From positions 288,001-352,000 of the forward strand of contig CAVWVI010000003.1 in assembly GCA_963758495.1 (NCBI GenBank): a stretch of DNA of 64,000 nt, given 5' to 3'. Under the pieces are notes generated by a model. That model was not told the DNA's origin. It saw only the letters and a list, made by a program, of their open reading frames with translations, and did no database searches. The position numbers were made by a program, and so were the translations under genes. Positions 7,396-27,982 of this stretch are shown here, piece after piece (within the stretch, counting starts at the first letter, position 1; every line of letters starts with the position of its first letter). The DNA comes from Oligoflexia bacterium (lineage in GTDB: Bacteria > Bdellovibrionota > UBA1018).

Positions 7396-8925
7396 TCACT
7401 TGCTTGAGTCATATGCGTCCCCATCGTCTAGAGGCCTAGGACATCGCCCTTTCACGGCGGTAACCGGGGTTCGAATCCCCGTGGGGACGCCAAAAAAATT
7501 GCTTAAAGAAACGCTCAAGGTATTAATATCTTGAGCTTTTTTTTCGCCTTGTGGGTCAATTGAATTAATTAATACATCTCTCTTCAAGGGCCTGCGGGGC
7601 ATATGCGGGACAAGAGCCCCTTTTTCCAAAGTTATTGTCGCAGGAGCTGCAATCTTGTTGTTTGGTTCTGATCGTTGTTGCGAACTTCGATAGGAGGCAG
7701 CAGACCTATTTAGAGATAGGATTGCCTGAAGAGCTGCGGCCTTAACCTGCTCTTCTGAAGACTCCCCCAATTTTGATATGACTTCTTGAACAAGCTTTGC
7801 CATTTTTTGAACGTCCGTACTTTCATCTTTCTCCGAACTTTTAAGATTGTCAAAAGCAAAGTCATCGCAAAGCCTCAAATCACCGTCTAAAAGATGTGTA
7901 TAGACCCGCGACGTAATACTAATGTCAGAATGACCTAAGATCACCGATATCTTCTTAATTCCCCAACCTTGGCGGATTTTATTACTAGCGAAGCTATGTC
8001 TTAATGTGTGCAAGTCGATACGCTGTTCCAGCCCAGCTTCCTTTGCAGCCACCTTAAGAGGCTTGAGCAGATAACGATCATTGTAGCGTTTGCCATTCTT
8101 TTTCGTGAAAATGAATGTCGCTTTGCGGGTTAGTTCGTGAAGAGCTTCCCAAGCACCCTCATCGAGAGGCACTCTTCGCTCCCTTCCGTTTTTACTAGTA
8201 GCAATGTAGATAAAATCGCCGTTACCATCGATGTCGCTCCAACGGAGGTTGAGAGCCTCACCCCTTCTCAAGCCTGTATGTGCAAGAAACTTCACGAAAG
8301 GATAGAGAAGAGCGCAATTGGACTTCTTTGAGGCTGCAAAGAGCCTTTCCAATTCTTCAGGTATTAAAAAATTGATTTTGCGCGTTGGAGCCTGCCGGGG
8401 AAAATACTTTTTGAAGTCTCTCATCCGTCGAATTGGATTTTCTCCATTGGACTCGACCTCAGCATAACAATCACCCAGGGACGCCATCAGTGCATGATAC
8501 TTTTGCAGCGTTGCGTGAGAAATCTCTCGATCCTTCAATTCTAAGTAAAATTTAAATAAAGTTTCTCTTTTCAAATCCTTGAATTTTAGTTTTCCTAATT
8601 TAGGAACGACGTCCTTCCTTAGACGTCGCCGTGTTTCATTTTGCCAATGAGGTTTGGCAGTCAAGAACTTCACACTTTTTAAGAAGAGATGCGAAATCTC
8701 CTCTACGTTCCGATTGAGAGTTTTCTCAGGAGTCTTAGGCTGGGGATCTAGTCCCAAAGCCAAATCACGACGAACCTCTGCTTCAAGCAGTTTAGCTTCA
8801 TTCTCAGTTCTCCCTGCTGCACGCTTGATCCACTGCCCCGTCTTTGGGTCCTTCCAGCGTACGATCCAGGTGACGTTTCCACTCCGGTGCTTCTTAGCAA
8901 AGATATTGGTGAAAAGTTGATTCAT
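7396..8925 (-). CDS. int: Tyrosine integrase; reading frame runs through attL and antisense across the tRNA
   Basis: TGLRRGE, HTLRHSF, LGHS...T.RVY catalytic residues; probable start ATG 8925 after ggggt RBS (ORF track starts at 8952). Confidence 0.93.
   Translation of the reverse strand: MNQLFTNIFAKKHRSGNVTWIVRWKDPKTGQWIKRAAGRTENEAKLLEAEVRRDLALGLDPQPKTPEKTLNRNVEEISHLFLKSVKFLTAKPHWQNETRRRLRKDVVPKLGKLKFKDLKRETLFKFYLELKDREISHATLQKYHALMASLGDCYAEVESNGENPIRRMRDFKKYFPRQAPTRKINFLIPEELERLFAASKKSNCALLYPFVKFLAHTGLRRGEALNLRWSDIDGNGDFIYIATSKNGRERRVPLDEGAWEALHELTRKATFIFTKKNGKRYNDRYLLKPLKVAAKEAGLEQRIDLHTLRHSFASNKIRQGWGIKKISVILGHSDISITSRVYTHLLDGDLRLCDDFAFDNLKSSEKDESTDVQKMAKLVQEVISKLGESSEEQVKAAALQAILSLNRSAASYRSSQQRSEPNNKIAAPATITLEKGALVPHMPRRPLKRDVLINSIDPQGEKKAQDINTLSVSLSNFFGVPTGIRTPVTAVKGRCPRPLDDGDAYDSSK
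7417..7492 (+). tRNA. tRNA-Glu (anticodon TTC); integration site
   Basis: gtcccca/tggggac acceptor stem with CCA; anticodon arm tcgcc-ctTTCac-ggcgg. Confidence 0.97.
7445..7492 (+). repeat. attL core (48 bp)
   Basis: cgccctttcacggcggtaaccggggttcgaatccccgtggggacgcca, identical to 38920-38967. Confidence 0.95.
7513..7544 (+). terminator. Element-supplied intrinsic terminator for the restored tRNA-Glu
   Basis: gctcaag...cttgagc stem followed by T8. Confidence 0.7.
7592..7612. repeat. Putative integrase arm-type site (left copy)
   Basis: ctgcggggcatatgcgggaca, identical to 38769-38789. Confidence 0.7.
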
Positions 8926-8936
8926 TGCAATTACCC

Positions 8937-9176
8937 CTAAGCCGACGCCCACCCATTACTTTGTTCTTGAGCTAACCAACGAACAAACTCTTTCTTTGGA
9001 AATCGAACCTCACGACCCACTGCAATTCTTGGAGGTCGCCGTTTGGGTTCTGATCTCTTAGCCCAATTATAAACAGTCCGACGATCACACTCCAAGAAAT
9101 TACAGATCTCATCCAACGTAAGAAGGCCTTTTTCAGGATACAATCGATTCACTTCTTCTAGCAATGTTTCAAACAT
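8937..9176 (-). CDS. Excisionase-like (AlpA/HTH_17) protein
   Basis: LLTLDEICNFLECDRRTVYNW...GREVRF; immediately upstream of int. Confidence 0.82.
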   Translation of the reverse strand: MFETLLEEVNRLYPEKGLLTLDEICNFLECDRRTVYNWAKRSEPKRRPPRIAVGREVRFPKKEFVRWLAQEQSNGWASA

Positions 9177-9188
9177 ACTCAGCCCCCA

Positions 9189-10700
9189 TTATTCCATCAC
9201 GATTGTTTCAGATTTCATAAAATCGACGAATGTTCTTGCAGGTGTTTTCTCGGCAACACCTGGAAACGCAAATCGTGCTCGATACCACGTAGAGTCGGCA
9301 GATAGTTTCAGGACTACTGGTCCACTTGAGGTTCCGACAGTGACTGGTGTTGTGGACTTCGTCACCGACCAGAATTCTTTGTTTGGGTAATGCCAACCAT
9401 TTCCCGGTTCAGGACTGTGACAAAACCGTCGATCATCCCAAGGTGAAGTTCCATTGGATAGCTCCCATTCTGCACACTGATTCATTGCGTTTTCGTCGGG
9501 ATGAGGCTGCTCAGGAAGAATCCTGTAAACTCGAATACTGTTGCAGGCTCGAGATGCTCCTGGCCAGCCTTTCTGCTGCCAGTAGTTTGTAGCCTTACCT
9601 ATGCCGTCCCAATCGTACATGTCGGTTCTAGGATTGCCACAACGACTTCGACAGCCACTAACGGCATCCACAGTGCTAAAACGTTGAACCGCATGCCCCT
9701 CTTTCAACAGCGCCACGGCTTTGGGTCCGTATGCGTAGATGCCAATCATTTTTTGTTCTCCCGGCTCCAAAGTCACTCCCCAATTCCCGACAGCAAAAGC
9801 TTCATTGATTGAGTTTGAAAAGGTCCTCGGCGTGTCATCTGAAAGTGGAATTGCAACCAGTTCAGATGCAAACTCCTCCTCCCAGTCTTGTCGAGCAATT
9901 GAGTGCCCACAAAAGCTCTGAGTCAAATTAAGACGAGTCATTGAACTACTGAGGCGACCATTCATTCTCACTGGAATTTCTACCACCAGAGGCCATTGTG
10001 AATCGTTTCGAATTGGGACGAATTGCACCAAAGCAAGCTGAACACCTACAGAATTTAGGAACTTCAGCTTTTGGGCAGCAGGGCTAAACTTTTCATCAAA
10101 AGCAGATACAGCCTTTTGGTCTTTACTGACTTTTGAAGGTGGAGTCATGATATTCAAGCTCACTGTTTCTAAGGGTGTTTTGTCAGTTTCACCGAAAAAA
10201 TGAATTTGAACCAATGCAAGACTCTCGCCTGTAGTAGAAAGCAATTTCGAAAACCCAAATGCAGAAAACTGGATTGAGCCTCCATCGAGACTGTCGTTAC
10301 TTTCTTTTACTTCGAGGTTGTAGGGAATCCCGCTCTCAGGTCCTACCCACCCTTGAACCGTTACACGTTTGACGAGGTCTCGCTGAGTGGAAGGCCTGAT
10401 TTCAAAATGAACTTCATCAGGAGCAGAATGAGGAACAATAATGGGCCGATCCAATGCCAGACTAGATAATGTCCCAGCTGGCTCTACCGAAACCGGCTCG
10501 CTCATCGAATTGTCTTCGAGCTTCCATGACATTTTGAGACTGCTACGCTTCATCACTGCTGCTTTTGGTGGATTATTTGGGCCGGTCTGTTCGCTTAGGT
10601 CCGGAGTTGGAGCAGGCTGACCTCCTCCTTCCGGTGATCGAAAAGCGCATCCTGCGATGCTTAATGCTAAAACCATTGTTGTTACTGACTGATATTTCAT
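9189..10700 (-). CDS. Lipoprotein of unknown function with Cys/Trp-rich C-terminal part
   Basis: Lipobox IAGC; 503-aa ORF within the transfer operon. Confidence 0.7.
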   Translation of the reverse strand: MKYQSVTTMVLALSIAGCAFRSPEGGGQPAPTPDLSEQTGPNNPPKAAVMKRSSLKMSWKLEDNSMSEPVSVEPAGTLSSLALDRPIIVPHSAPDEVHFEIRPSTQRDLVKRVTVQGWVGPESGIPYNLEVKESNDSLDGGSIQFSAFGFSKLLSTTGESLALVQIHFFGETDKTPLETVSLNIMTPPSKVSKDQKAVSAFDEKFSPAAQKLKFLNSVGVQLALVQFVPIRNDSQWPLVVEIPVRMNGRLSSSMTRLNLTQSFCGHSIARQDWEEEFASELVAIPLSDDTPRTFSNSINEAFAVGNWGVTLEPGEQKMIGIYAYGPKAVALLKEGHAVQRFSTVDAVSGCRSRCGNPRTDMYDWDGIGKATNYWQQKGWPGASRACNSIRVYRILPEQPHPDENAMNQCAEWELSNGTSPWDDRRFCHSPEPGNGWHYPNKEFWSVTKSTTPVTVGTSSGPVVLKLSADSTWYRARFAFPGVAEKTPARTFVDFMKSETIVME

Positions 10701-10722
10701 ATTTCCCCCTGGATTACTTCTT

Positions 10723-12264
10723 TCAGGACCCAGAAATAGAGGTCCATTTGTCGCTGCTGTCGTTTACATTCAGATGTGATTTTTTTGGCTCTCCCTGAGC
10801 TTTGCCTGATTGCTCCCCTAAAAATGCCGGTGCAATTTCAGTTGGATTCAGAGGTTTCTCTTCTTTCCTGCCAATTCCCCTTTGCTCGGTCTTATGAGCA
10901 ACAGGCATCGAGTTCTTTTGGATTGGACGAGCTGTTTTGAAAGGAATTCGGAGTACACGTGTTTGTCCTTCAGTCTTCATACTGAAAACGCATTCGCCTA
11001 CCCTCAGAGACTTGATTCGATCGGGTGGAATAATAAATTCCTGCACCTCTCGATTCGATGAATCTCCCGTTCTAAACCCGTCGTGAGTACTGTAGGTTTG
11101 CTTCACGGTTTTTCGAGTGCCAATAAAGCGGGACCACCGTTCAGCATCATCGGGGTCATCCTGGCGAAAGATAAATCGTACATTGCAATTGCCTAAAATT
11201 TGGCCCGTAAATTCGGGACTCACCGTATTCAAATCAGAAAGAGTTTGGTGCGCCAGGTGAATCATGAATTCACTGGAACGCCCTTTATTTAGAAACGTTG
11301 AAAAACTTTCAGTAGCAAAAGCATCAAACTCATCAATATAAACGCTAAATGGACGATCACTCTTAAGAGAAGCATTCCGTTTTCTCATTCCTGAAATCAA
11401 AATGATCTCTTGAGTGAGAAGTCGACCGATACGACTACTCTGGACCTTCTTGCCCTCAGTAGGAAGGTCAACGAAGAGAATTTTATTTTGAGTGACGACA
11501 TCCAGTAGAGAGATCTCTCTGCTCGGGTCAATTTCATTCTTCTTCCCGCAAGCCAGAACCTTTTCCCATTCACCGTAAACCAGGTTATTTAGGTCAAAGA
11601 ATAGGCCTTTCAGTGTCTCATTCTTGTCATCTTCACTGATAGACTCGAGTTCTCGCAAAAGGTCACGAATGGTAAATCCATTTTGATTGGATGTAGTGAG
11701 GTGGCGAAATGCCTGAAGGAGTCCAAACTCACATGCTTTTGCATAGTGAGGTTCGCTATAGACAGCAGAGTTGAAAAACTTGGTTTGAAGTTCAGAGGCA
11801 TTCCCTAATCCACAGGGGTTCCAAATTGAACTCTCTTCAGGAAAGGTAGCCGAAAGAAGAAAGAGGTCCTGCTCCCTTCCAATGGATTGACAATAGGCCC
11901 GTACAGACTCGTAAAAACCACGTTCTCCCTTTGGATCAATGACGACGGCACCATATCCCCGTTCAAGATCTGCAAAGAGGAGCTTTTCGACAAGAACCGT
12001 TTTTCCAGTACCGGTTGCACCAACAATGTGAGTATGACGAAGACGTGCCGTGTCTCCAATCCATTCTGAGCCAATTCGAATTCCATATTTTGGTTTTCTT
12101 CTCAGGCGAAAACAGAACTTATCCCAGAACCAATTGATCACTTGTGGCTGGAGCAATGTTAAGAAGGTAACAGTAACTCCAACACTCCCCAATAGGAGCA
12201 GTTGCTCATGAGTGAATTGCTGAAAGAAACCTGACGAATGATGGAGCACCATTGTCTTTTTCAT
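10723..12264 (-). CDS. Type IV coupling protein (VirD4/TraD-like)
   Basis: N-terminal TM helix, Walker A GATGTGKT, IDPKG, Walker B YIDEF, AHQ..SDL, GNCN..FIFR..DPDDAE. Confidence 0.9.
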   Translation of the reverse strand: MKKTMVLHHSSGFFQQFTHEQLLLLGSVGVTVTFLTLLQPQVINWFWDKFCFRLRRKPKYGIRIGSEWIGDTARLRHTHIVGATGTGKTVLVEKLLFADLERGYGAVVIDPKGERGFYESVRAYCQSIGREQDLFLLSATFPEESSIWNPCGLGNASELQTKFFNSAVYSEPHYAKACEFGLLQAFRHLTTSNQNGFTIRDLLRELESISEDDKNETLKGLFFDLNNLVYGEWEKVLACGKKNEIDPSREISLLDVVTQNKILFVDLPTEGKKVQSSRIGRLLTQEIILISGMRKRNASLKSDRPFSVYIDEFDAFATESFSTFLNKGRSSEFMIHLAHQTLSDLNTVSPEFTGQILGNCNVRFIFRQDDPDDAERWSRFIGTRKTVKQTYSTHDGFRTGDSSNREVQEFIIPPDRIKSLRVGECVFSMKTEGQTRVLRIPFKTARPIQKNSMPVAHKTEQRGIGRKEEKPLNPTEIAPAFLGEQSGKAQGEPKKSHLNVNDSSDKWTSISGS

Positions 12265-12950
12265 TGATAGTCTCGGCGATCAAAGAGTCGAACTTCCCCT
12301 CGTTGAGTCCAAACTGGAGGGATTGACGATTTTAGACAGTTCCAATGAACAACACCCATAGGCTGTTCCTTTGGACCAGAAGGAAGATACTTCTTTATCG
12401 ATTCGAAAAGTGTGTCTTGCGTTGCAACGTAAAGGACAAAAATAATTCCTGGAATGTCCTTCCATCGATTCATAAGATGAATAAAACGCGATCGACCTTT
12501 GTCCGAGTTTTCTACTTCAATCGCAATGCCTTTTCCTGATTTGAAGAAAAACAATCCATCTGGAATCTGACGATACTCTTTACCCTTAATTGCACGCTCG
12601 CAAACGAAATGAGCATCCCAGCATTCCTCTAACCGTTGACGCACTGACGTCACAATTGAGTCATGAACTAAGGTTGCGAGTTGGAGATTTCTGACCGGTG
12701 TATGGGGAGTCGCTCCACTTTCAAGGGCAACTCCTGCTCCCGTTCGTGTGGTTCGATAAATGGGTTTTCGACCTAAAGTTGATGTAAGTTCTTCAAATAG
12801 AAAGTTCCCTTTAACCAACTCTTGCACCCTCATTCTACAAGCTCTGTAAGATGCATTTGGAAAAAACTTCTCAACATGCTCCGTCAAAAGAAATTGTTGT
12901 TCGTAACAGAGCTTCAGAATTCTCCTATCTCTGTCCTGAAGAATGATCAT
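12261..12950 (-). CDS. Replication-relaxation (Replic_Relax-like) wHTH/PD-(D/E)XK protein, candidate relaxase
   Basis: QDRDRRIL start, LVHD, IPDG and IAIEVENS motifs; ATGA-coupled to the coupling protein. Confidence 0.7.
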   Translation of the reverse strand: MIILQDRDRRILKLCYEQQFLLTEHVEKFFPNASYRACRMRVQELVKGNFLFEELTSTLGRKPIYRTTRTGAGVALESGATPHTPVRNLQLATLVHDSIVTSVRQRLEECWDAHFVCERAIKGKEYRQIPDGLFFFKSGKGIAIEVENSDKGRSRFIHLMNRWKDIPGIIFVLYVATQDTLFESIKKYLPSGPKEQPMGVVHWNCLKSSIPPVWTQRGEVRLFDRRDYQ

Positions 12951-13015
12951 GCTGGTCCCCTCTTTGTTTTTAGGTTTTTGTTTTTCTTTGTTTCCAGTCC
13001 CCTGTCTCCTCCCCC

Positions 13016-13187
13016 CATGAACTCCCGGCCCGCACTTTGGATCTTGGATCTAGACTTTGGATATCGCTTTGATTTGCCGACCCCGCTCACTCGTCGTTGA
13101 GTGGGTGGGGTCGGCAAATGCGCCAGCAAGAAGCGATTATCTAAAGACCTGGATCTAAAGAGGAAAGGTGCGGGCCGGGAGTTCATG
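13016..13187 (+). other. 172-nt nested hairpin, candidate oriT / single-strand origin / antisense RNA
   Basis: Perfect 20-bp outer stem (13016-13035/13168-13187), perfect 13-bp inner stem (13072-13084/13107-13119), further pairing between them. Confidence 0.7.
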
Positions 13188-13199
13188 CTGAAGTTCATC

Positions 13200-13715
13200 T
13201 CAATTCTTCGCATCATGAACCCCTGACTGAATTGGCTTTGCGAAGAGTTCGCCGGAACGTTTTACTCTGTATGCCTTGTGCGGTTCGTGAAGAGTGCCGT
13301 CTTCTGAGACAGAATCCTCTTCAATGAATTCCTCAATGACGAGGGGTTGAATTCGTTCCCTTACAAACTTCGGAAGTTGCTGGTTAGGCGTAACTTGGAA
13401 CTCACGCAGAGATCTATCGAGACTCTCTTGAGCTTTAAGATCGCCCTGGGATTTTGGAACCTCTGGTTTGGAGTCGGTAAGAAGTGCAGCAACACCTCCT
13501 AGTAGTGCACCGCTTAAACCGAACACCAAAGTATTCAACATCCTGCTTTCTTGGTTGGGAGAGAATACTGCCCCTCCTGCTGCACCCAACCCCGCTCCAA
13601 GTCCAGTCCCCAAGAGAAATCGTTTTCTTCCGGTGAGACTGGCACATCCTGAAGTCGATAGAACTGCCAAGAGACTCCACACGATATAGATGACGGTTTT
13701 GCGTCGGAATTTCAT
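13200..13715 (-). CDS. Lipoprotein with glycine zipper, T4SS-associated (TraV/VirB7-like position)
   Basis: Lipobox TSGC, Gly zipper; TGATG coupling to the upstream gene. Confidence 0.65.
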   Translation of the reverse strand: MKFRRKTVIYIVWSLLAVLSTSGCASLTGRKRFLLGTGLGAGLGAAGGAVFSPNQESRMLNTLVFGLSGALLGGVAALLTDSKPEVPKSQGDLKAQESLDRSLREFQVTPNQQLPKFVRERIQPLVIEEFIEEDSVSEDGTLHEPHKAYRVKRSGELFAKPIQSGVHDAKN

Positions 13716-14488
13716 CAGAAGCGAACCTCCTCTTGGACGAGCACAGTGAGAGCGGTCTGACTTTCAACAACAAGGATTGGCTTTTCAGCAGTTGCTTCCT
13801 CGATAAGTCTTTTGCCCTGATCTGCAGCCGTTTGTGCGACCCCCTGCAACAGAGCATTCCTTCCTGTAGGCTGCGGAGTGGAAAATCCAAGTGCATTTGT
13901 ATTTTGAGTTTGTTGAGAAGCAGCAAACCCAGAAATAAAACTAGACGCCATTGCTCCAGCAACAGCTACAGCCTTACCGCTAAATACTTGAGCCTCAAGT
14001 CCATAGGCTCCACTAGTGTCTAGGCCAGTGCTTTGAATACCTACTGCCTTGCCGGTCCTTAGAAGGAGTTTATTAAACTCTAAAGTGAGGCGTCCTTCGG
14101 TTCCAGCCTGACGCGCTAATCCCATGAGCTTAAGATCTGAAAGTGCTCCCTGGCCAGAATCCAATACGATCAAAATGGGAGAACCATCGGGACCCACGAC
14201 AAGACGAGTGAGAGTCTTTCCATAGAGAAGCTTTCCAGTAGGAATTTTCACTGTGCTAAAATCCGAGTGCACTTGGAATAAGGGTTTTTGGTTGGCCTCG
14301 CTGTTTTGAGTAGGTGAAAGGGAGGCCGGATTGCTGTCAGCAAATCCCACGTTAAGGCCAAACTTTCGCATCAGAACATCGGTTTCCTTTTGTTGATTTC
14401 GAAGACCGATAGTTCGTCGCTGGTACTCGGCATCAGTCATTGCCAGAGCAGGGATACTGAAAAAAAGAACAATCGCTGTCTTTCTCAT
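13715..14488 (-). CDS. VirB10/TrbI-like T4SS core protein
   Basis: Signal peptide, KIPTG.LL.G, R+.+.F..L, G..GL...V, PILVV....L.VL pattern. Confidence 0.72.
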   Translation of the reverse strand: MRKTAIVLFFSIPALAMTDAEYQRRTIGLRNQQKETDVLMRKFGLNVGFADSNPASLSPTQNSEANQKPLFQVHSDFSTVKIPTGKLLYGKTLTRLVVGPDGSPILIVLDSGQGALSDLKLMGLARQAGTEGRLTLEFNKLLLRTGKAVGIQSTGLDTSGAYGLEAQVFSGKAVAVAGAMASSFISGFAASQQTQNTNALGFSTPQPTGRNALLQGVAQTAADQGKRLIEEATAEKPILVVESQTALTVLVQEEVRF

Positions 14489-14823
14489 TCCAAATCTCCT
14501 TTTGCTCGGTATTCCAAGTCCGATGCTCTTGGTGATTCTGAAGAGGGAGCAATTGCAATCACTCGTCGAACCGTTCCGGTGCTTGTCTCCAAAATCAGGT
14601 TAGTCCTTGCAGATCCGGAAAGAGGTTTTAGTAAGACTCCGCATCCCAGCTCCTTGGGGAGAGACTCAAGGCGAACTAAAGCGTCATTTCCAATAGCAGA
14701 GACAAATAACCGGCCTTCGCAGCGAACCTTCGTGATGAAGCCGGGATAAAGCTTGAGAACCTCTTCTGCGCTGACAGAACTCGATATAAAAAGCGTGATT
14801 AGGCCCAAAACAAATCGTTTCAT
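14485..14823 (-). CDS. Small exported protein, VirB9/TraK N-domain-like
   Basis: Signal peptide, LYPGFITKV, LLKP...SARTNLILET. Confidence 0.55.
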   Translation of the reverse strand: MKRFVLGLITLFISSSVSAEEVLKLYPGFITKVRCEGRLFVSAIGNDALVRLESLPKELGCGVLLKPLSGSARTNLILETSTGTVRRVIAIAPSSESPRASDLEYRAKGDLE

Positions 14824-15611
14824 TCTGCTTGTACCGGACCTTTCTTGAAATTTAGGATTCGTCTGACACTTCGAAATAGACTCGCCTGAGAATCGAGGTC
14901 CCCTGAAAACGCTCCAGAGAGAAACTTATGAGTCATGGCTGGAATCATTAGAATGAGAATAATGGCAAGAAGTTCTACTGCAACGACGTACAGTCCCCAG
15001 CTTCCGGCCTTCAACATTTCTTTTCTGGCCACGAGAGCGGTCGTAACCTCCACTGCTGACAGCATTGGAAACCAAAGAGCTAATTCGATGGCATAAAGTG
15101 ACATGTGGTTAAACATTTGAGGAGCAACAGGATACACACCGCAGGCAATGGGAAATAAGAAGAGCAGTAATGTCCAAAATACATCTCTCGCGCTCTCCAG
15201 CAAGAAGGATGCGATTAGGAATACCCAGTCTACGACTGCGCACATCACCCCCCAAACGCCGGTTCTCCAGGCCTGTTCTAATACGGCAGGCAAATTGAAC
15301 GACGTGGAGGTTCCTGACGGTCCTGGTTCCCCAGAAGCCTTTTGAAACGCATTGAGAATGATTGCTCGCAGATCCTCCTGATGCCCAAGCCTAGAAATGA
15401 CAGTCGATAGTCCTTCTGAGAGAATCAATAGCTGAGAAGCCGCTGACTTGAAAAAAATCAGAGCAATACAACCGATTGCCATCCGCTCAAAAGAAAGATG
15501 CAAGTCAAACGAGCCTCGCATTGATCTGACTAAACAAAACCCAAACGACGCACCTAAAAGTAATCTGCCAGAAGGAATCAATATATCTGGCGTAACAGAT
15601 TCAGTGATCAT
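14820..15611 (-). CDS. Polytopic membrane protein, VirB6/TrbL-like
   Basis: About 5-6 TM helices; position in the operon. Confidence 0.6.
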   Translation of the reverse strand: MITESVTPDILIPSGRLLLGASFGFCLVRSMRGSFDLHLSFERMAIGCIALIFFKSAASQLLILSEGLSTVISRLGHQEDLRAIILNAFQKASGEPGPSGTSTSFNLPAVLEQAWRTGVWGVMCAVVDWVFLIASFLLESARDVFWTLLLFLFPIACGVYPVAPQMFNHMSLYAIELALWFPMLSAVEVTTALVARKEMLKAGSWGLYVVAVELLAIILILMIPAMTHKFLSGAFSGDLDSQASLFRSVRRILNFKKGPVQAE

Positions 15612-16318
15612 CGGTTGCTCCCCATTCGGCCTTTGCGAGAAGCAACCGTGAGTTGTCGCTCGTAGAGAACTCGACGCATTTTTGATTCTTGAAGGTCTTT
15701 CGAGACTTGGCTCTTTTGAAACTCCAAAGACATGGCTTGAAGTTGGACTAATTCCGACATGGTTTGGAGTTGTACGCCGGTGGCAAGCATTTGAGCCGAA
15801 GAGCTAGCTGCAGTAATTTGACTCGCTCTTCCAGGAGTTGCTGTTTTTGACTCCTCAGACAGCTTTGTGCCAGTTATCACCATTTCCTGTCCCATTTTGT
15901 AAGCAGTGTCCCCTTGTATAGCGCTACTGGTGATCGCTTGGTCAGCTAGTGACACTTTCACTGCCATCAGATCGTCAATCTGCTCTTTTGTTCGTTGGGC
16001 TCGAGAAATAAGATCGTTCAAGTCAGATAGACTTCGAATTGAAGTAGGATCGAGGCCCTGACTTCTCTCTATTATGGATTGAATATTATAGATTTGGTTA
16101 ACCGCTCGATCCACGCCCTCATTTAAGTCTTTCAATGTATTGATTTGATCCTTGGCAACCCCAATATTCTCCGTAAGTCTTTCGATCTCGGTGATTTGAC
16201 CCGACACCAGCTGAATAAGTGGGACCATTTCAGATCCAAAAAATGCATGGGCAGTTGGACAGGACAGTAAGGAACTAGAAAGGACCACAAAGGAAATCCC
16301 TAGGAAGGAGAAACGCAT
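15608..16318 (-). CDS. Exported helical protein, VirB5/TrbJ-like
   Basis: Signal peptide ending AHA; coiled-coil Q/L-rich body; position after VirB4. Confidence 0.55.
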   Translation of the reverse strand: MRFSFLGISFVVLSSSLLSCPTAHAFFGSEMVPLIQLVSGQITEIERLTENIGVAKDQINTLKDLNEGVDRAVNQIYNIQSIIERSQGLDPTSIRSLSDLNDLISRAQRTKEQIDDLMAVKVSLADQAITSSAIQGDTAYKMGQEMVITGTKLSEESKTATPGRASQITAASSSAQMLATGVQLQTMSELVQLQAMSLEFQKSQVSKDLQESKMRRVLYERQLTVASRKGRMGSNR

Positions 16319-18144
16319 CGTTGGCTCCTTTCCAAAAGCTGATTCTTTCGGATCTCGGCTATTAGCTCTTCTCGAAGATTGTCAGTCCTGAGCAAAGCAT
16401 GTTCTACGTCAGTAGGATAAAGCCTCCCAAAACGAGACAGGAATGGAGTCTTAATGAGACATTCCGAGAAGACTCCTTTTTTCTGACGAAGAGATCTAAC
16501 CTTAGTCAACTCTACTGAATTTAAGCCGAGAATTCCCTGATACTGTTCCAGATCCTCTCCCTGTCGAAGAAGGATTCGAATAGGTGCGTTTTGAAAAATA
16601 CTCTGTCCACTTTGGTCAGTGAGAAAATCAGATAAACTTTGTGTAACCGCGATCGCCGCTCCGTTCAATTTGCGAAATTCACGAAATGCTCTTTGAACTA
16701 AAAGCGGTTCATCTCTCATGAAATTCCAACACTCATCTAGGACAACATAGACAGGATGAGTGGAGTCTCGTGATCTTAAAAACGCTTCTAACTGGCCTAA
16801 AATCGTTTGGATACCCATCTTTTTATCGTTCTGATCAAGATCCGAAAGTTCAATTCCGGCCATTCCACCGACACTATTGAGATGACTGAAAACACAGGCA
16901 GTTGAAGCCTGGAGTTCATTTAATTTCTTAGGTTCTTCATATCCCTGCCCAAATGCACGAACTAGACGTCGAAAACTTCTATTATGATCAATGAAAAGAA
17001 CGCTCATCGGAACTCTGGCTTCGATCATTCTCTTCAGTACCAAACCAGTAAAGAAACTCTTTCCACTTCCAGAAGCGCCTACTACAAGCCAGTGGAGAGC
17101 CTCTAACCTCGAATCGTTGGGTGAAAAGTAGAGAGGCTTTTTACGGACGGTTGTCAGAATAGATGCACCTGGCTCGACTGGATCATTCAGATTTGGAATC
17201 AAATCACATGCAGTTACTGCACGAACCAGATGGGTACGATGAAGCCTGTGTCTCAAACCCAGCGTAGCGCAAACAGCCAAATCAGCTCGCTTCTCGTGAC
17301 AAAACATCGAATGGTCTAGGTCCAACTTCGAAGGTGAAATGAGGATAAGGGAGATTTCTACTAGCGTTTCATCTCCGCGAGATAGACCCTGAAGAACTGC
17401 GCTTGAATCTTCAAAAGCAACCTCTGCATCAATATCTGAGATGACAGAATCGCCTCTGGCATTGTTGCGTCGGGAAATTTCAATTTGACGTTTAACTGAC
17501 TGAAAGCTTACTCCTCGAACAGTTACGACTACTGTAACCGGCACATCAATTCTTTTTAGAATTGAAAAAAGAAACAGCGGGTCGGTTTGAACGGGGATCT
17601 GATAGAGAGAATAGACTTGTTCCTGACCTGTATAGATTCCTCGAGTTATTTCTGAAAAGTCGAGTTTTCCTGCAAGACTAAATCGCCCTGAGCAGCCAAT
17701 TTCATAGCCTTCTGCACCTTTATCGCTCATTTCGCAGACAATTGTGTAACGTTCATTTTCGTTGAGACTGACAATTCGTTCAAGGAGAGCTTCCTTGGAT
17801 GCAATCAATTCTCTCTCATCAAGAGTGTCTGGAGGTTGAATGTCGAACGGAGTTTCCAGGAACTCGGATCGACCATTTGGATTTTTAATCCTAACCCTTC
17901 GCTCGATTGGCCAAATAAGAGACTCTTCCCAACCTGTCTTTGCGAACTGGCTCGTCACCCTAAGAATGACGTAGCCTGATGCTCCCACTGCTAAGGAAAT
18001 AAGGTCTCCATAGCGAACTCCTCCGAGAGCTACTGACATCCCTAAAACTAGGCTTGCTAGTCCAATTAAACCAAAGAGTGGAACTCCGAATATCAGCGGC
18101 CTTCTTAAAAGATTCCTGGCTGTGGGCTCGCAGTAAACTCTCAT
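16300..18144 (-). CDS. Compact VirB3-VirB4-like fusion ATPase
   Basis: N-terminal L.RPLIFGVP plus two TM helices (VirB3-like); GASGSGKS, VVLDECW, REFRKLNG..IAVTQS. Confidence 0.82.
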   Translation of the reverse strand: MRVYCEPTARNLLRRPLIFGVPLFGLIGLASLVLGMSVALGGVRYGDLISLAVGASGYVILRVTSQFAKTGWEESLIWPIERRVRIKNPNGRSEFLETPFDIQPPDTLDERELIASKEALLERIVSLNENERYTIVCEMSDKGAEGYEIGCSGRFSLAGKLDFSEITRGIYTGQEQVYSLYQIPVQTDPLFLFSILKRIDVPVTVVVTVRGVSFQSVKRQIEISRRNNARGDSVISDIDAEVAFEDSSAVLQGLSRGDETLVEISLILISPSKLDLDHSMFCHEKRADLAVCATLGLRHRLHRTHLVRAVTACDLIPNLNDPVEPGASILTTVRKKPLYFSPNDSRLEALHWLVVGASGSGKSFFTGLVLKRMIEARVPMSVLFIDHNRSFRRLVRAFGQGYEEPKKLNELQASTACVFSHLNSVGGMAGIELSDLDQNDKKMGIQTILGQLEAFLRSRDSTHPVYVVLDECWNFMRDEPLLVQRAFREFRKLNGAAIAVTQSLSDFLTDQSGQSIFQNAPIRILLRQGEDLEQYQGILGLNSVELTKVRSLRQKKGVFSECLIKTPFLSRFGRLYPTDVEHALLRTDNLREELIAEIRKNQLLERSQRCVSPS

Positions 18145-18145
18145 G

Positions 18146-18469
18146 TTATCGCACCTGACTGGAAATGAAGTTCCAAACTCCGGTCAAACCAAGTAGACAA
18201 GCAATTGCGACAACAACTCGAACTGTCTCATTCTTTGCATTCGGATCGCCTTGAATATGTGCAAAGATATTCTTTCCGAGATATCCCACAGCTACGATTG
18301 GGAGAAGCCTGCCCGTAAAGGCTTTTACCAAGTTATTCAGAGTTCCTTCAAGGTCTGCCGCAAACGCAACCTCTGGCACTAGGAGACTTAAGAGCAAGAG
18401 AGGTTCATTCATTGCTCCAGCTTTCCGAACGAACCTACCTAAAGTTTTTTCTTTATGTGTTGCTTTCAA
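18146..18469 (-). CDS. VirB2/TrbC-like pilin
   Basis: Leader ending PEVAFA, then two hydrophobic helices; start is TTG 18469 (RBS aaggagg) or ATG 18412. Confidence 0.7.
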   Translation of the reverse strand: MKATHKEKTLGRFVRKAGAMNEPLLLLSLLVPEVAFAADLEGTLNNLVKAFTGRLLPIVAVGYLGKNIFAHIQGDPNAKNETVRVVVAIACLLGLTGVWNFISSQVR

Positions 18470-18554
18470 ACCGGCCTCCTTCCGATATGCATCCAAATTC
18501 TGCGACCGCAAGACATCTCTTTTTGCGACGCACTAACAAATCGCGGCGAGTATG

Positions 18555-18571
18555 AGCATGAAGAATGCCAG
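18555..18571 (-). promoter_or_regulatory. sigma54 -24/-12 promoter for the transfer/xis/int operon
   Basis: Minus strand cTGGCAttcttcaTGCt = GG-N10-GC; divergent from a sigma54 activator gene. Confidence 0.72.
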
Positions 18572-18677
18572 GTACACAAAACATCTAAGATGTTGAATTG
18601 GTTAAGTTTGAAGCATATGCGTTAATTTCAATTGGACTAAGCAGTCGCAAAAGTTGGATTTTTCTCTGGATTTTCAA

Positions 18678-18693
18678 GTCACATTTCTGAGAC
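18678..18693. promoter_or_regulatory. Candidate activator-binding palindrome (UAS)
   Basis: GTCaCAtttcTGaGAC about 110 bp upstream of the -24 element; IHF-like attcaacatctta (minus, 18586-18598) lies between them. Confidence 0.4.
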
Positions 18694-18718
18694 AAGACCT
18701 TTCAAGGGGGCGGCAATA

Positions 18719-20218
18719 GTGAAACAAGAATTCAAGATATTGTTAGTTGAGGATCAGGAGAGCTTTAGAGAGGCTGTCATTCAACTTCTTGGGGTGTACA
18801 ACGAAGTTCACGGAGTAAAGAACCTAGCTGAAGCAAGAGACATCCTACAAAAGCGATCCTTTGAGGTCGTTATCTTAGACAAGAATTTACCTGATGGAGA
18901 TGGATTTCACCTCATCTCTGAAATTAAAGAAGAAAATCCAAACTCCGTAGTGATTGTTCTTACGTCCAACAGCGATTTCAGTAACGTGAAAAAATGTATC
19001 GCACTGGGTGCAGATGACTATGTCGTAAAGAGTGGAAATATTATTCCAGAACTCCTGATTCGGATTCCAATTGCAGTCTCCAGAGCGGCAAATGACCGGC
19101 AGCTCACCCATTTGAACAATCAAATCAAAAAGGCCTTTAAATATGAGTTGGTTGGAAAATCAAAAGCTGCAACTGAACTTCGACTATCCATCCTAAGCCT
19201 TAAGGGCACACCTTCGACAGTTCTTATTACGGGGGAAAGTGGAACAGGAAAAGAAGTGATTGCTCGCCGATTGCATGCGATCGAAGATGACAGCAAGAAT
19301 CGTCCTTTTATTGCATTGAACTGTGGCTCTATCCCAGAGAACCTCATCGAGAGCGAACTCTTTGGGCATAAAAAAGGCTCATTTACTGGAGCACATGCTG
19401 ATCAAGTTGGAAAGTTTGAATTGGCTCACGGAGGAGATCTTTTTCTAGATGAAGTAGGAGAACTCTCCCTTACAGCACAGATTAAGCTTCTTAGAGTTCT
19501 TCAGGACCAACAGTTCTATCGAATTGGCGGAATCAAACCTATTCAAGTCTCATGTAGAGTCATCGCCGCGACCAATCAGGATCTAGAGGAATTAATTCGA
19601 CAGAAGAAGTTCCGATCCGACCTGTTTTATCGTCTCAACGTTTTGAAATTTCATGCTCCACCACTTAGGTCTCGGCAAGAGGATATTCCAGACCTTGTCC
19701 AATTTTTTCTACTTCAAATTGGCGCACCCTTCATGACTTTGACCGACAAAGCTTATAGCAAGCTGGCCGAACATGACTGGCCTGGAAACATCCGAGAGCT
19801 TGGGAACATAATAGAACGCGGAGTCATTTCAGCTAGAAAGAAGAAATCTAACCGTATTGATCATGAAGACCTCACTATCGATCGATCTCTTGAAGGGAGG
19901 GAAGCCGGAGGTCGTAGAATTGAAATGGCTCTTCCAAGTGACTTTGGAGACCTGTCTGAGCAGGGCTATAGAGAATACCTAGAGCTAGCTGAACGTGAGT
20001 ATCTCAAGAAGGCTTTGTCTATTCACAATGGAAATGTCGCAAATGCTGCATCTGCAATTGGAATGTCGAGAAGCAATCTTTTTCGGAAAATTTCCCAGCT
20101 TGGAATTTCAAAAAAGACTGAGGATGAGTCCCTGACTATAAATAACAGCAATACTTTACATCCCCTCACCTCCAAATATCGCCACGATCAACACTTGGAT
20201 ACAGCAGAGGCAAGATAA
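18719..20218 (+). CDS. NtrC-family sigma54-dependent response regulator
   Basis: Receiver domain, GESGTGKE, ESELFGH..GSFTGA, FLDEVGE, WPGNIREL, C-terminal Fis-type HTH. Confidence 0.96.
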   Translation: MKQEFKILLVEDQESFREAVIQLLGVYNEVHGVKNLAEARDILQKRSFEVVILDKNLPDGDGFHLISEIKEENPNSVVIVLTSNSDFSNVKKCIALGADDYVVKSGNIIPELLIRIPIAVSRAANDRQLTHLNNQIKKAFKYELVGKSKAATELRLSILSLKGTPSTVLITGESGTGKEVIARRLHAIEDDSKNRPFIALNCGSIPENLIESELFGHKKGSFTGAHADQVGKFELAHGGDLFLDEVGELSLTAQIKLLRVLQDQQFYRIGGIKPIQVSCRVIAATNQDLEELIRQKKFRSDLFYRLNVLKFHAPPLRSRQEDIPDLVQFFLLQIGAPFMTLTDKAYSKLAEHDWPGNIRELGNIIERGVISARKKKSNRIDHEDLTIDRSLEGREAGGRRIEMALPSDFGDLSEQGYREYLELAEREYLKKALSIHNGNVANAASAIGMSRSNLFRKISQLGISKKTEDESLTINNSNTLHPLTSKYRHDQHLDTAEAR

Positions 20219-20220
20219 CT

Positions 20221-20964
20221 ATGTCGAGCAATAATCAGAATCTCGTTGGAAAAGTAGCTCTCGTTACAGGAGCAAATAGAGGAATTGGACTTGAGGTGTG
20301 TAGACAGCTCGCTCAAAAAGGTGCCCGAGTTATCCTCACCAGTCGCGACGAAAGGAAAGGTCAGGAAGCAAAGACCTTGCTTACCAAATCAGGGCTAAAT
20401 GTTGATTTTTGGGTATTGGATGTCCAAAACGATGAGAGCGTTCGTCATGCAAGAGAGTACGTAGAGGGAGCTTTTGGAAGGCTGGATATTCTAATCAACA
20501 ACGCAGGTATTTTGCCTGATAACACAACACCAGGCATATTCTCTGATCGAAGTATTTTAGAAACAGACTTCGATGATATTCTTGCAGCGTTCCAGACCAA
20601 CTCTCTAGGCGTCGTCCGTGTTTGTCGTGAATTTGTACCTCTTATGAAAAAAGGTGGTTCAGGTCGGATCGTTAACGTTTCGAGCATGATCGCACAGCTT
20701 GCAACCATGGACAGCGGCAGCCCTGCATACCGGATTTCAAAAGTTGCACTGAACGCGATTACACGCATCCTCGCGGACGAACTCAAAGATCATCATATTC
20801 TATGTAACTGCGTTAGCCCTGGTTGGGTCAAGACTGATATGGGTGGTCCCAATGCCAATATTCCTGTGGACCAAGGAGCAGCTGGAATTGTAGACCTTGC
20901 ATGCCTACCCGACGGTGGAGCAACTGGGCAGTTCTTTCGAAATGGGCAGGTCATTGAATGGTGA
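20221..20964 (+). CDS. Short-chain dehydrogenase/reductase (carbonyl reductase-like)
   Basis: TGANRGIG, NNAG, YRISK, PGWVKTDMGG. Confidence 0.95.
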   Translation: MSSNNQNLVGKVALVTGANRGIGLEVCRQLAQKGARVILTSRDERKGQEAKTLLTKSGLNVDFWVLDVQNDESVRHAREYVEGAFGRLDILINNAGILPDNTTPGIFSDRSILETDFDDILAAFQTNSLGVVRVCREFVPLMKKGGSGRIVNVSSMIAQLATMDSGSPAYRISKVALNAITRILADELKDHHILCNCVSPGWVKTDMGGPNANIPVDQGAAGIVDLACLPDGGATGQFFRNGQVIEW

Positions 20965-22895
20965 CCATCAATTTTGTTCGAAACAGACAGCTTGGAAGTG
21001 TAATTCTATTTGGGATTTTTCTGGTTTCGGCCTTTATCATTCCCTTTTACGTCAATGACATTTGTCGCTGGATCAGTCTTTCCACTGATAGGTCTGGGTT
21101 TATCGTTGCCGTACATGAAGCCATTTGCTCGGCACTCTCATTTTCTTGGCTGTTATACATTCGAAAGAAATCTGAAAGGCAGCAGAGTTGGGAAAAATAT
21201 TTTCCTTTAGTATTCATCTGCCTTTCCTTTGCTGACCTTGCATATGGGGTTCACTATTACTTTCTAAATCACGTATTCAAGAACACACCAGGATTCTTGA
21301 TTCACCAGATCCCATATATTTTAGTAATGTACTTTCTCTCTCATGTCACGATCATGAGGAGCTTTGAAAACACGAAAAAAAAGAAGGAAAAATACCTCAT
21401 TGGTGGTGCAATTGCTGCTATAGCAGCCATCTATTTCGCCTGTTCCTACAAGATGGTTCTTAGCTATCATTTTCCTGCAGGGTACCAGCGTCCTACAGCC
21501 AATTTTATTACCTCCTACATATACGGCATCCTGCAGTCTATCTCGATGGGCGGGCTTGTAGTCGCAAGTCTTAGGACTCCTGGACTCGCAGAGTTTTTTC
21601 AATGGTTCCTTTTTGTAACCATGAATGGAAGCGATTTCGCCCTGAGATACCAGGACGTAGGTGCTCACAAGCTAGGTACCCCCATGTTTGAATATGGTTG
21701 GGAAATAGCTGTTGCCGGAATCAGCGCACTTATTCTCTTTCGAAGATTGGGTTTAGGTCAAACTGACAAGCTCATGAATGAAATGCCAACTCCAGTGAAT
21801 AGCATTCGAGTTCTAGCTCCACTTTCCACCCTATCGATACTCGCACTCTTTGTTGTTCTAAACTTGGTATCTGCTCCCTATTTTGAAATTGCCAATATTA
21901 ATACCATCAGTGGACATACACTGATTTTCGCCTTTGTGTGGCTAACGGCAAACGGAATGGGACTTTATCTTAGTCAGATTCTTTCCGATCGAATTAGAAA
22001 GCTTAATCTTCAAATTGAATCAGCTCAATCTTTGGAAGACTTGGATAAATTGCGCGGAAATCTCGTCGAAATGAACCCAGTGTTTCAGTCCCTTAAGCAG
22101 ATGAAAATTCAGTTGAGTCATTCAATGGAAGAGAATCTGAAAGCAAGATCCTTAGCCGCTGTTGCATCCACAGCGTCAAGAGTAGTGCATAATATTCGTT
22201 CTCCCCTTTCTGCCTTGGAGATGGGACTGAGTATTGTCCCCGATATGCCTGCTAATGCCGATTCGATTATTAGAAAGTCTCTTGGAGAAATCAAAAGCTT
22301 CGTTAAGGACTTGGAAGCTCAGTCGCGTAAATTCAAAATGGAGGATCATAACCTCGGAAACACCAAAGATATTCGGCCCAAGACAGTGGAGCAGATTTCT
22401 AAGCTGGTAGAACTCTCAGTTGCTCAAAAGAAGATTGAACTTCACCAAAGGTCCGAGATTCAGATAATTTTAGAGATTAATGAGAACGCACGCTCTCTTT
22501 ATTCCGAATTGGACTCCCTAGAATTTTCCACCATCATTTCTAATTTAGTCAACAACGCAGTCGATGAAATGCAGGCCGGCGGCCAAGTTAAAGTTCTTCT
22601 TTCGAGAGACGGCAATTTCGGCGTCTTACAAGTTGTCGACAACGGGAAAGGCATCGCTGCCGAACTCCTACCCAACCTTGGAACCCTAGGATTCACCCAT
22701 GGCAAAAAGCATGGAACTGGGCGAGGCCTTCATGATGCGAAGAAAGCCATAGAAGCTTGGGATGGGCGTATCTCCTTCCATTCAGAACTAGGTAAGGGGG
22801 TGTGCGTTTCAATCCAGTTGCCCGATTTAAACTACCACTTATGTAACCAACCAATGAGCCCATTTCTTAAACCCAACCCATATTGCAGGAATTAA
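20958..22895 (+). CDS. Multi-TM sensor histidine kinase
   Basis: Polytopic N-terminus; H-box VHNIRSPL, N-box NLVNNA, DNGKG, GTGRGL. Confidence 0.92.
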   Translation: MVTINFVRNRQLGSVILFGIFLVSAFIIPFYVNDICRWISLSTDRSGFIVAVHEAICSALSFSWLLYIRKKSERQQSWEKYFPLVFICLSFADLAYGVHYYFLNHVFKNTPGFLIHQIPYILVMYFLSHVTIMRSFENTKKKKEKYLIGGAIAAIAAIYFACSYKMVLSYHFPAGYQRPTANFITSYIYGILQSISMGGLVVASLRTPGLAEFFQWFLFVTMNGSDFALRYQDVGAHKLGTPMFEYGWEIAVAGISALILFRRLGLGQTDKLMNEMPTPVNSIRVLAPLSTLSILALFVVLNLVSAPYFEIANINTISGHTLIFAFVWLTANGMGLYLSQILSDRIRKLNLQIESAQSLEDLDKLRGNLVEMNPVFQSLKQMKIQLSHSMEENLKARSLAAVASTASRVVHNIRSPLSALEMGLSIVPDMPANADSIIRKSLGEIKSFVKDLEAQSRKFKMEDHNLGNTKDIRPKTVEQISKLVELSVAQKKIELHQRSEIQIILEINENARSLYSELDSLEFSTIISNLVNNAVDEMQAGGQVKVLLSRDGNFGVLQVVDNGKGIAAELLPNLGTLGFTHGKKHGTGRGLHDAKKAIEAWDGRISFHSELGKGVCVSIQLPDLNYHLCNQPMSPFLKPNPYCRN

Positions 22896-23414
22896 AATCA
22901 GAATAATTGCAAAAATTGACATTCTCGCTGGAAATAAGGGGTAACAATCTGGTCCCCAAATTTTCCGACCATAGTTTTGACAAAGTAAACCCAGTCCATT
23001 TATTTTTAAGATCATATTTGAATCTTCACTGTATGGAATTTCGAACCAATCATCAGGGTTAAGTTCACTCAATTTCATTGGCTCGGAGAGGCTTTTAGTG
23101 GGTTTCTTGCTCTCGTTATGCCGCGCATATGCACTGAAGTTGCATTTATCATCCGAAGACTCCGTAGGATCACCACTTCCTCCAGGATTTTTTCCTTGAG
23201 AAATTCGCATTTCTCTATCTGTCAGTTTACAGTATGGGCCTTCTTCTAACTTCTTCCAGGTTACTTTGATCTCATCAGGAAGCTCCGAGAAAACAACTAC
23301 ATCATGAAGAAATATGACCGACAAGCAGGCAAGCCCACCAATACTTATTGTAATTAGTATAATTTTAATAGTTAAGTATAACTTATTAATAATTCTATTT
23401 AATTTAATTTCCAC
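22839..23414 (-). CDS. Hypothetical two-TM membrane protein
   Basis: 191-aa ORF with N- and C-terminal TM helices. Confidence 0.55.
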   Translation of the reverse strand: MEIKLNRIINKLYLTIKIILITISIGGLACLSVIFLHDVVVFSELPDEIKVTWKKLEEGPYCKLTDREMRISQGKNPGGSGDPTESSDDKCNFSAYARHNESKKPTKSLSEPMKLSELNPDDWFEIPYSEDSNMILKINGLGLLCQNYGRKIWGPDCYPLFPARMSIFAIILILIPAIWVGFKKWAHWLVT

Positions 23415-23668
23415 TACACTATTGTCCTATATAAATAGAAGTGTGTGAACTACATTAGAAGTATTTTAAGACAGCACAAAAACCTAACAAATACTTACCT
23501 TTTATTTGGATTTGACTCAAATCAGGCTCAACTATACCGCGAGGTGTTTGTGACACTGCCAAAACAGTAACCTAGGAAACTGCCAATTAAAGAAATGTGT
23601 GGATCCAGGAGGCGGTTGGGTATTTGTAATCTAGTTCCGAAATATGCATCAAAAAATAACTTCAGTTA

Positions 23669-24364
23669 TTATCTTTTCGCTAAAATATAATAGTCTAGAT
23701 CTGGCTCGTTCCTCCATTGAATCCGATCATATACGCTATCTAGTAATGCAATTTCTTCATTATGGCCTTGACGGTAAATTCGGATTTCGAATCTGATGCT
23801 GTTAGCAATAATGTATGCGTGCAAATCCCTTAAAAAATACATAGTGTGTTTTCTGGCTATTTCCTGATGAGATTCGCTGCAATAGAAAGAATGGGCCGAA
23901 TGGATATTCGTTGTTGCATTAATATTGCTATTTAAAAGCACTTCTCCGTTTAAATATTTTGACCTACAGCATACTGGCTTCATTGCATTGGGCTTCACCT
24001 CGAATTGAAAGGTGTGAATCTGACTATCGAAGATTTCCAATTTGTTTAAGAGTCTTAGTCGATCAAACTCCTTCTTGCATGGATCTGGAAAGTTCGCCCT
24101 GGTATCATGAAGACAGGTATCATCATTGACCCAACTGAAGTAGACGGCGTTAATACTTGCAAGTACCTCGAAAAAAAGCTTGTACTGACCATTCGCAGCA
24201 GGAATCTTTTGCCTATAGGGAGCAAGCCCAGGCCGAATATAGTCGTGAAGATAGGGATCTTGGGCCACATGATCCACCGCGTGAAAGACCATATTTTGCA
24301 GATTTAGTTTCCAAGAGAAGACTCTTTCAAGGAAAAACCGTGAGTAGAGAACTCTATGTGCCAT
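23669..24364 (-). CDS. YhaV/RelE-like toxin domain with C-terminal extension
   Basis: QYKLFF...VYFSWVNDD..L......DP...F resembles the YhaV signature. Confidence 0.55.
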   Translation of the reverse strand: MAHRVLYSRFFLERVFSWKLNLQNMVFHAVDHVAQDPYLHDYIRPGLAPYRQKIPAANGQYKLFFEVLASINAVYFSWVNDDTCLHDTRANFPDPCKKEFDRLRLLNKLEIFDSQIHTFQFEVKPNAMKPVCCRSKYLNGEVLLNSNINATTNIHSAHSFYCSESHQEIARKHTMYFLRDLHAYIIANSIRFEIRIYRQGHNEEIALLDSVYDRIQWRNEPDLDYYILAKR

Positions 24365-24453
24365 TCGCTCATTTTAACCAATACAGTTAAATTTTCTACT
24401 TATAACATCTCAATATCTTTAAGTTATTTTTAACTTTAATAAAATATCAACTT

Positions 24454-27975: not shown

Positions 27976-27982
27976 GCAAACT

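Follow-up and report, generated by a model that had tools for sequence, protein, structure and literature searches.

Conjugative elements that carry their own two-component system offer the closest parallels to the locus described here. In CTnDOT, which belongs to the integrative and conjugative elements (ICEs), the element-borne pair RteA/RteB is needed for transfer and acts via RteC (PMC5812530, PMC1976400, PMC3809561). The signal for RteA is given as unknown (PMC3809561); RteB leads via RteC to Xis2c and Xis2d on separate operons, the switch is tetracycline attenuation, and in the Rte text examined the rteC promoter is not described as sigma54-dependent (PMC5812530). RteB of the CTnDOT-like CTn214 contains Response_reg and Sigma54_activat domains (PMC10865816), so an ICE-borne regulator of the sigma54 type was already known. 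Here we analyzed a window of 64,000 nucleotides from an Oligoflexia bacterium (GCA_963758495.1, contig CAVWVI010000003.1, positions 288,001 to 352,000), which contains a 31.5-kb Bdellovibrionota ICE (window positions 7445-38967) flanked by a 48-bp direct repeat of tRNA-Glu. Its minus-strand genes for transfer, excision and integration are headed by a candidate sigma54 promoter and faced by a divergent operon for an activator, a short-chain dehydrogenase/reductase (SDR) and a membrane kinase. To the reading that the element's own two-component system directly controls transfer and excision through sigma54, we assign a probability of about 0.7 on the strength of comparative sequence analysis.

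The likeness to CTnDOT is that an element-borne kinase and response regulator would gate excision and transfer; the difference is that the activator in the window directly faces a structural operon ending in xis and int. Among the 55 window open reading frames (ORFs) of at least 100 amino acids that were scanned, none matched the TetQ or RteC family, and the tetQ-rteA-rteB arrangement of CTnDOT is not present. In light of RteA/RteB, the original prediction for this window went too far in holding that known ICE switches do not work in this way. The system also resembles NtrC at glnAp2: a REC-AAA+-Fis activator is combined with a -24/-12 element and with candidate tandem sites upstream (mechanism in PMC7057263). 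It differs in its target, a conjugation and excision operon, and the activator falls below the TIGR01818 cut-off and is therefore not NtrC itself. VirG of the Ti plasmid is an OmpR-type sigma70 activator that answers plant signals and differs in this from the window activator. What VirA/VirG shares with the window is two-component control of transfer genes carried on the element (PMC1976400). MOBC relaxases are of the restriction-endonuclease kind (PMC11104534), and the window element resembles MOBC ICEs with tyrosine integrases in relaxase kind, coupling protein, VirB4 and tRNA integration, differing in its compact system with a VirB4 of 614 amino acids. At the level of titles and abstract openings, with most subscription literature outside this scope, we found no description of a conjugation and excision operon headed directly by a sigma54 promoter. 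In the accessible text of an ICE review, RpoN appears a single time, within a NifA reference, and the terms 'conjuga' and 'Bdellovibrio' are absent from that of a cross-phylum sigma54 survey (PMC12316311).

The gene run from the pilin to the integrase is tightly packed. Successive junctions between 18469 and 8925 measure 1, -19, -4, -4, -4, -1, [249-bp gap], -4, 22, 12 and 11 bp, and the pilin starts at a TTG preceded by a strong ribosome-binding site. The promoter-side run to the start of int extends over 9.5 kb. Re-examination upheld the original description of this minus-strand run with its single hairpin-bearing gap (all other junctions lie between -19 and +22 bp), of the GG-N10-GC motif at its head on the same strand, of the upstream palindrome, and of the divergent NtrC-type activator, SDR and multi-helix kinase, whose catalytic motifs are intact. 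The element ends were absent from that description and were fixed here; because the 48-bp repeat bounds the element, the activator operon sits within it. Gene content between the ends is that of an ICE: besides the att repeats, we found an integrase (PF00589), an excisionase (TIGR01764), a VirB4, a coupling protein and a relaxase, the last with a match score under curated cut-offs. VirB4 and VirB10 are the only mating-pore parts with a family match; several other VirB parts were placed by position, among them a membrane protein that is probably VirB6-like. Coordinates are collected in Table 1.

The candidate promoter was judged by the host's own sites. The host uses the N10 spacing, with 20 intergenic matches in its genome vs 0-4 at eight other spacers. 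With a scoring matrix built from 46 host sites, the window site scores 14.9, a value reached by 3.7% of 540 host upstream regions, and it is the only intergenic one of three sites within the element that score at least 11. The flanking palindromes are rare: palindrome 1 has four occurrences in the 3.66-Mb host genome at up to one mismatch, and site 2 and its inverted twin (18491-18506) are the sole sites of their type there. By sequence, the two upstream palindromes are candidate activator sites that fall in the 80-150 bp range of such sites, and we take their centers near -141 and -107 to resemble those at glnAp2. The IHF (integration host factor)-like site of the original prediction is present and weak, as 110-bp intergenic stretches of the host contain one in 69 of 316 cases. 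Both this site and the pattern count were rejected as stand-alone evidence, being common by chance. A consensus scan, which overall gave no more sites than chance would (17 vs 19.6 expected), listed no minus-strand sigma70-type site at 8925-18720; sigma70 and terminator scans were discarded as evidence for their chance-level results. The host carries rpoN with an intact RpoN box, and no element-borne sigma54 was found among 86 neighboring proteins.

Comparison across the family ties the motif to the activator. Of 127 genomes from one Bdellovibrionota class, 25 carry elements with the short VirB4, and these elements share their gene order. We scanned up to 700 bp before the pilin in 32 elements (one further element had no pilin call), 10 with and 22 without an upstream activator. 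A canonical site scoring at least 14 is present in five of the activator-bearing elements and a short-spacer site (9 or 8 bases) of at least 16 in four more, while the tenth scores 9.3. None of the 22 activator-less elements reaches 13 at any spacer, the best being 12.0; for four of them the available stretch was shorter than 700 bp, they include two pairs of near-copies, and two were rescanned at the true operon head with a best score of 5.9. A sigma54-like site thus precedes the pilin in 9 of 10 elements with the activator vs 0 of 22 without it. For 26 elements of known context, Fisher tests yield p values of 0.004 for canonical sites and 3e-6 for any spacer, to be read with the caveat that kin are not independent. 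A quick VirB4 tree disperses the activator-bearing elements (8 changes, at least 5 forced), and in independent pairs the motif tracks the activator in 4 of 5 and does the opposite in none. Palindromes of the 6-4-6 type lie upstream in 6 of 10 activator-bearing elements; among control windows the figure is 8 of 48, and among host windows it is 37 of 255. The comparison of homologs called for by the original prediction gave coupling in 9 of 10 activator-bearing elements, and 22 of 32 elements lacking both parts. The latter is no refutation, because motif and activator are lost together and another module replaces them.

The reverse comparison started from 27 loci of the activator's closest homologs, of which 19 were analyzed and eight dropped out by a motif filter. 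A divergent canonical site is present at six. Four of these sites lead into VirB4-type genes, three of them belonging to other conjugation types with VirB4 proteins of 725-755 amino acids. Two activator-bearing plasmid regions are unrelated to transfer genes.

Several findings weigh against direct control by the element's own activator. The GG-N10-GC pattern by itself occurs in the window at chance frequency (6 vs 6.64 expected), and the element classes were set by gene content only after the sequences had been inspected. The pair test cannot be significant (p 0.125), and canonical sites alone follow the activator in 2-3 of 5 pairs. In L046 and L068, the activator lies about 5 kb away from the promoter. 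Int is also required in the recipient, perhaps via another promoter. Of 10 other loci of the kinase family, only 2 adjoin an activator, with no VirB4 or transfer genes in the fetched stretches, a finding that also counts against the self-made signal considered below. At 13 of the 19 analyzed activator homologs there is no divergent canonical site; the host has 16 activator-like loci besides the element's own, which could serve the promoter. These last two points, together with an SDR-kinase pair in one genome (G080) that has no adjacent activator or transfer genes, would suit a real sigma54 promoter driven by a host activator tied to host physiology, with the activator-SDR-kinase operon as cargo that has another target. 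Such an arrangement is unlikely: it predicts that the motif persists where the element's activator is missing, and none of the 22 elements of that kind has it. The host genome contains few copies of the enhancer-like sites, and no other intergenic sigma54 site that might be an alternative target was found in the element. More remote still is a chance or decayed motif beside a sigma70-type promoter, held by a repressor that binds the inverted repeats around it. The chance-level motif count, the two copies at 18491-18506 and 18644-18659 that bracket the promoter like looping operators, and an element-encoded protein with helix-turn-helix (HTH) and tetratricopeptide repeat (TPR) domains would fit this explanation, which is nonetheless very hard to reconcile with family-wide coupling of motif and activator, with the correct position and spacing of the motif, and with the same layout before other conjugation operons.

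The gap between the relaxase gene and the transfer genes bears on whether one transcript would span the whole run. This gap (12951-13199) holds nested inverted repeats with 21-nt arms (13072-13119) and 30-nt arms (13016-13187), and is bridged by an ORF of 89 codons that the original prediction had missed. A hairpin just upstream of the relaxase gene is kept in 15 of 19 scored elements (21 were tried and two dropped for want of an anchor), and we read it as a putative origin of transfer (oriT). Over the gap, 13 of the 19 elements have a sense frame that is open for 95% or more and 5 have such an antisense frame, where shuffles expect 2.4; the open sense frame suggests selection for unbroken translation, as one transcript would require. 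Packing and the bridged gap thus support a predicted single transcript through xis and int, within which internal promoters may also act. Sigma54 might instead drive only the front part of the mating pore, with relaxase, coupling protein, xis and int self-promoted or cut off at the gap. The 9.5-kb distance to int, the strong hairpins in the gap, the six relatives of 19 without a fully open frame across it and the need for Int in the recipient, established for ICEs, lend this some weight; we nevertheless judge it improbable, since genes overlap throughout, an overlapping ORF bridges the gap here and in most relatives, and the chance-level scan gave no sigma70-type site on the minus strand at 8925-18720. 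Coupling of transfer and excision by sigma54, as originally proposed, is partly supported by comparative evidence and packing, while the joint transcript and the direction of triggering keep the standing of predictions.

Direct sigma54 control by the element's own system would work as follows. The whole mobility run would be kept silent behind the sigma54 promoter until the membrane kinase phosphorylates the activator, which would bind at about -141 and -107 and loop to the host sigma54 polymerase at 18571-18555. A single transcript would then be opened from pilin through relaxase, coupling protein and xis to int, which would give pilus assembly, nicking and excision a common start; the two site copies downstream of the start may limit or tune activation. 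A sigma54 promoter stays silent until acted on by an ATPase activator, which suits a costly, risky step such as conjugation. If this reading is true, the direct link from the element's own sensor to pilus, relaxase, xis and int would be a simpler switch than the repressor and relay cascades of model ICEs, and gene transfer in predatory-type bacteria, whose mobile elements have barely been studied, would gain a trigger that can be tested.

The divergent operon raises the question of the signal. The activator holds all motifs of a group I bacterial enhancer-binding protein: REC aspartate, Walker A and B, a GAFTGA-type loop and a Fis HTH. Its GSFTGA loop variant recurs in 3 of 7 host activators examined, and a tree that included only 7 of the host's 16 activator-like loci was weakly supported. 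The sensor domain of the kinase has no Pfam family, no atlas match and no Foldseek match at E <=0.001. Its model (pLDDT 76.5, from 11 sequences) aligns with seven-helix folds resembling G-protein-coupled receptors (GPCRs) at a best Z of 11.2 over 182-187 residues with a root-mean-square deviation of 4.3-4.5, below the caution level of about 13 for helical bundles. Polar residues are conserved within the sensor helices, and homologs of the membrane domain occur in 9 of 401 genomes of the phylum. The ligand is presumably a small molecule, and the signal could either trigger or block transfer; no secreted peptide precursor in the window element passed our filters.

In the quorum circuits CqsA/CqsS and LuxM/LuxN of Vibrio, which lead to LuxO, and in LqsA/LqsS of Legionella, an enzyme gene lies beside a multi-helix kinase feeding a response regulator; LuxO is a sigma54 activator. 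The window shares this pairing of a small enzyme gene with a membrane kinase that would feed a response regulator. It differs in that its enzyme is an SDR and no known autoinducer synthase, its sensor is without a Pfam family and the module is mobile. A small enzyme gene adjoins 9 of 10 other kinase homolog loci (SDR, papain-like, DTW, SET or GFO oxidoreductase), and the top SDR homolog of the class (61%) is a neighbor of the top kinase homolog (40%). It is possible, if doubtful, that the seven-transmembrane (7TM) kinase reads a signal which the SDR has made or modified, an idea prompted by this co-occurrence of genes. Cassettes around activator homologs often include an exporter or a periplasmic binding protein; those of L221-L225 and L215-L217 vary in their enzymes, exporters and binding proteins, one example comprising an IMPDH-like protein, EamA, a deaminase and a binding protein and another a methyltransferase and a DMT exporter. 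At L138 (2568-7960), on a contig without transfer genes, an integrase related to that of the window precedes an activator, a kinase that shares the window kinase's sensor family, and an oxidoreductase.

Most elements without the activator carry another module at the same position, and the control cassette is therefore exchangeable; the activator module would be one of several such cassettes in this family. Most activator-less elements have a divergent gene of 240-310 amino acids (with an HTH match in four of those scanned) and a major facilitator superfamily (MFS) permease, and most have, upstream of the pilin, a small ORF for a secreted Gly-rich product in which GGHGG-like repeats are frequent. 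A conserved hairpin leader is present in 12 of 21 activator-less vs 0 of 10 activator-bearing elements. ParA/ParB was ruled out for the divergent genes, which are HTH regulators and MFS permeases instead. By its gene content, this module looks like a peptide-signaling switch. L066 (5911-9722) and L067 have an insertion of three additional genes, one of them ssb, between leader and pilin. A diversity-generating retroelement set (reverse transcriptase, bAvd and a gene with an FGE-sulfatase domain) lies between activator and transfer promoter in L046 (2993-7301). The exchangeable cassettes hint at unexplored small-molecule signals and their receptors.

The window's own site has canonical spacing. 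Sigma54-like sites with N9 spacers (L057, L081, L164, L165, L167, L184 and L217) or N8 spacers (L050 and L059) head conjugation operons that are associated with a single tandem kinase-activator clade. In the short-spacer activator clade, an N9 site scoring at least 15 lies right downstream in 5 of 22 analyzed loci and an N10 site of at least 14 in none; at a sixth locus, an N9 site heads the locus's transfer operon, and four of the newly fetched loci contain a VirB4 gene. A fixed -24/-12 spacer is the rule for sigma54, from which the N9 and N8 sites would depart. An altered sigma54 in these hosts was rejected because all five genomes tested peak at N10, with 20-29 matches vs 10-16 at N9 and 9-20 at N8. 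Two short-spacer matches in one host contig (G338:C110) fall within coding sequence. These sites in relatives would test the rule of fixed sigma54 spacing. It is tempting to speculate, and we do so only tentatively, that conjugative elements of Bdellovibrionota run a private, diversified form of sigma54 cell-to-cell signaling, each with its own cassette of activator, small enzyme and receptor kinase. In the window's version, a membrane-soluble signal made or modified by the SDR would reach a GPCR-like 7TM kinase, and the output would be a single transcript serving pilus, nicking and excision; sister elements would swap the enzyme (methyltransferase, papain-like, GNAT, glyoxalase or hydrolase) or use peptide-permease-HTH cassettes, and the short-spacer clade, with a sigma54-like promoter one or two bases shorter than that of the host, might be insulated from host activators.

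Table 1 Features of the element and its control region (window positions unless loci are named)
Feature	Position	Strand	Remarks
Tyrosine integrase (int)	7396..8925	-	509 aa; PF00589; tail reads through attL over antisense tRNA
attL	7445..7492	+	48-bp core, part of tRNA-Glu(TTC) 7417-7492 (tRNA 3' half)
21-bp repeat	7592..7612	+	second copy 38769-38789; likely integrase arm sites
Excisionase-family HTH protein (xis)	8937..9176	-	PF12728; TIGR01764 above cut-off
Predicted lipoprotein	9189..10700	-	no family; position kept in family at 20-30% identity
Type IV coupling protein	10723..12264	-	PF10412, PF12696, PF02534
MOBC-like / Replic_Relax relaxase	12261..12950	-	229 aa; winged helix and nuclease motif; NF041423 E 1.4e-7, under cut-off
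89-codon bridging ORF	12947..13216	-	overlaps both neighbors; contains oriT-like nested hairpin 13016-13187
Five conserved transfer genes	13200..16318	-	Gly-zipper lipoprotein, VirB10/TrbI (PF03743), 112-aa protein, membrane protein, 236-aa protein; synteny
Short VirB4-like ATPase	16300..18144	-	614 aa; PF19044; TraC/VirB4 models under cut-off
Pilin-like protein	18146..18469	-	VirB2 by position and hydrophobic pattern; no family match
Two enhancer-like motif copies	18491..18529		downstream of predicted start, +15 and +38
Sigma54 -24/-12 element GG-N10-GC	18555..18571	-	TGGCA context; predicted start 18544
IHF-like site	18586..18598	-	1 mismatch vs consensus; weak
Enhancer-like site 2	18644..18659		center about -107; inverted twin of 18491-18506
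Enhancer-like palindrome 1 (6-4-6)	18678..18693		center -141
Sigma54 activator	18719..20218	+	REC-AAA+-Fis; D54, Walker A/B (GESGTGKE, FLDE), GSFTGA loop, Fis HTH
Classical SDR	20221..20964	+	catalytic motifs intact
Histidine kinase	20958..22895	+	H411 and ATP-binding boxes kept; multi-helix membrane sensor, 7TM-like model
Cargo and maintenance genes	22839..38505		HTH-TPR protein, DUF6119, DUF4379, ParA, unknowns
attR	38920..38967	+	48-bp direct repeat of tRNA-Glu 3' half
Alternative module upstream of pilin	L053, L055, L058, L060, L065, L071, L074, L080, L082, L085, L088		loci in activator-less elements

The integrase frame comprises 509 amino acids in the integrated state and 566 codons over the junction of the excised circle; Int and tRNA overlap in 5 of 7 elements with a neighboring tRNA. 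In the seven elements that carry the window's integrase type, xis and int lie directly downstream, and an excisionase-like small ORF, judged by eye, precedes the integrase in 9 of 10 elements of differing integrase type. Replic_Relax (PF13814) was matched in 6 of 16 homologs of the 229-aa relaxase. Homologs of the window proteins come from Bdellovibrionota, many from Bacteriovoracaceae; no close plasmid relative of the short-VirB4 system was found, and viral contigs gave no VirB4 relative. An Rfam scan of the window matched tRNA alone, and a search for sequencing runs gave none.

The HTH-TPR protein within the element (815 amino acids, 25005-27452) is a possible second regulator. At 23669-24927, a weak YhaV-like toxin ORF (E 0.0007, under the cut-off) lies beside a divergent 157-aa ORF, possibly as a toxin-antitoxin pair. 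Directly outside attR (39880-44558), we found a reverse transcriptase of the group II intron type, a Tn5-like transposase and an IS110 transposase.

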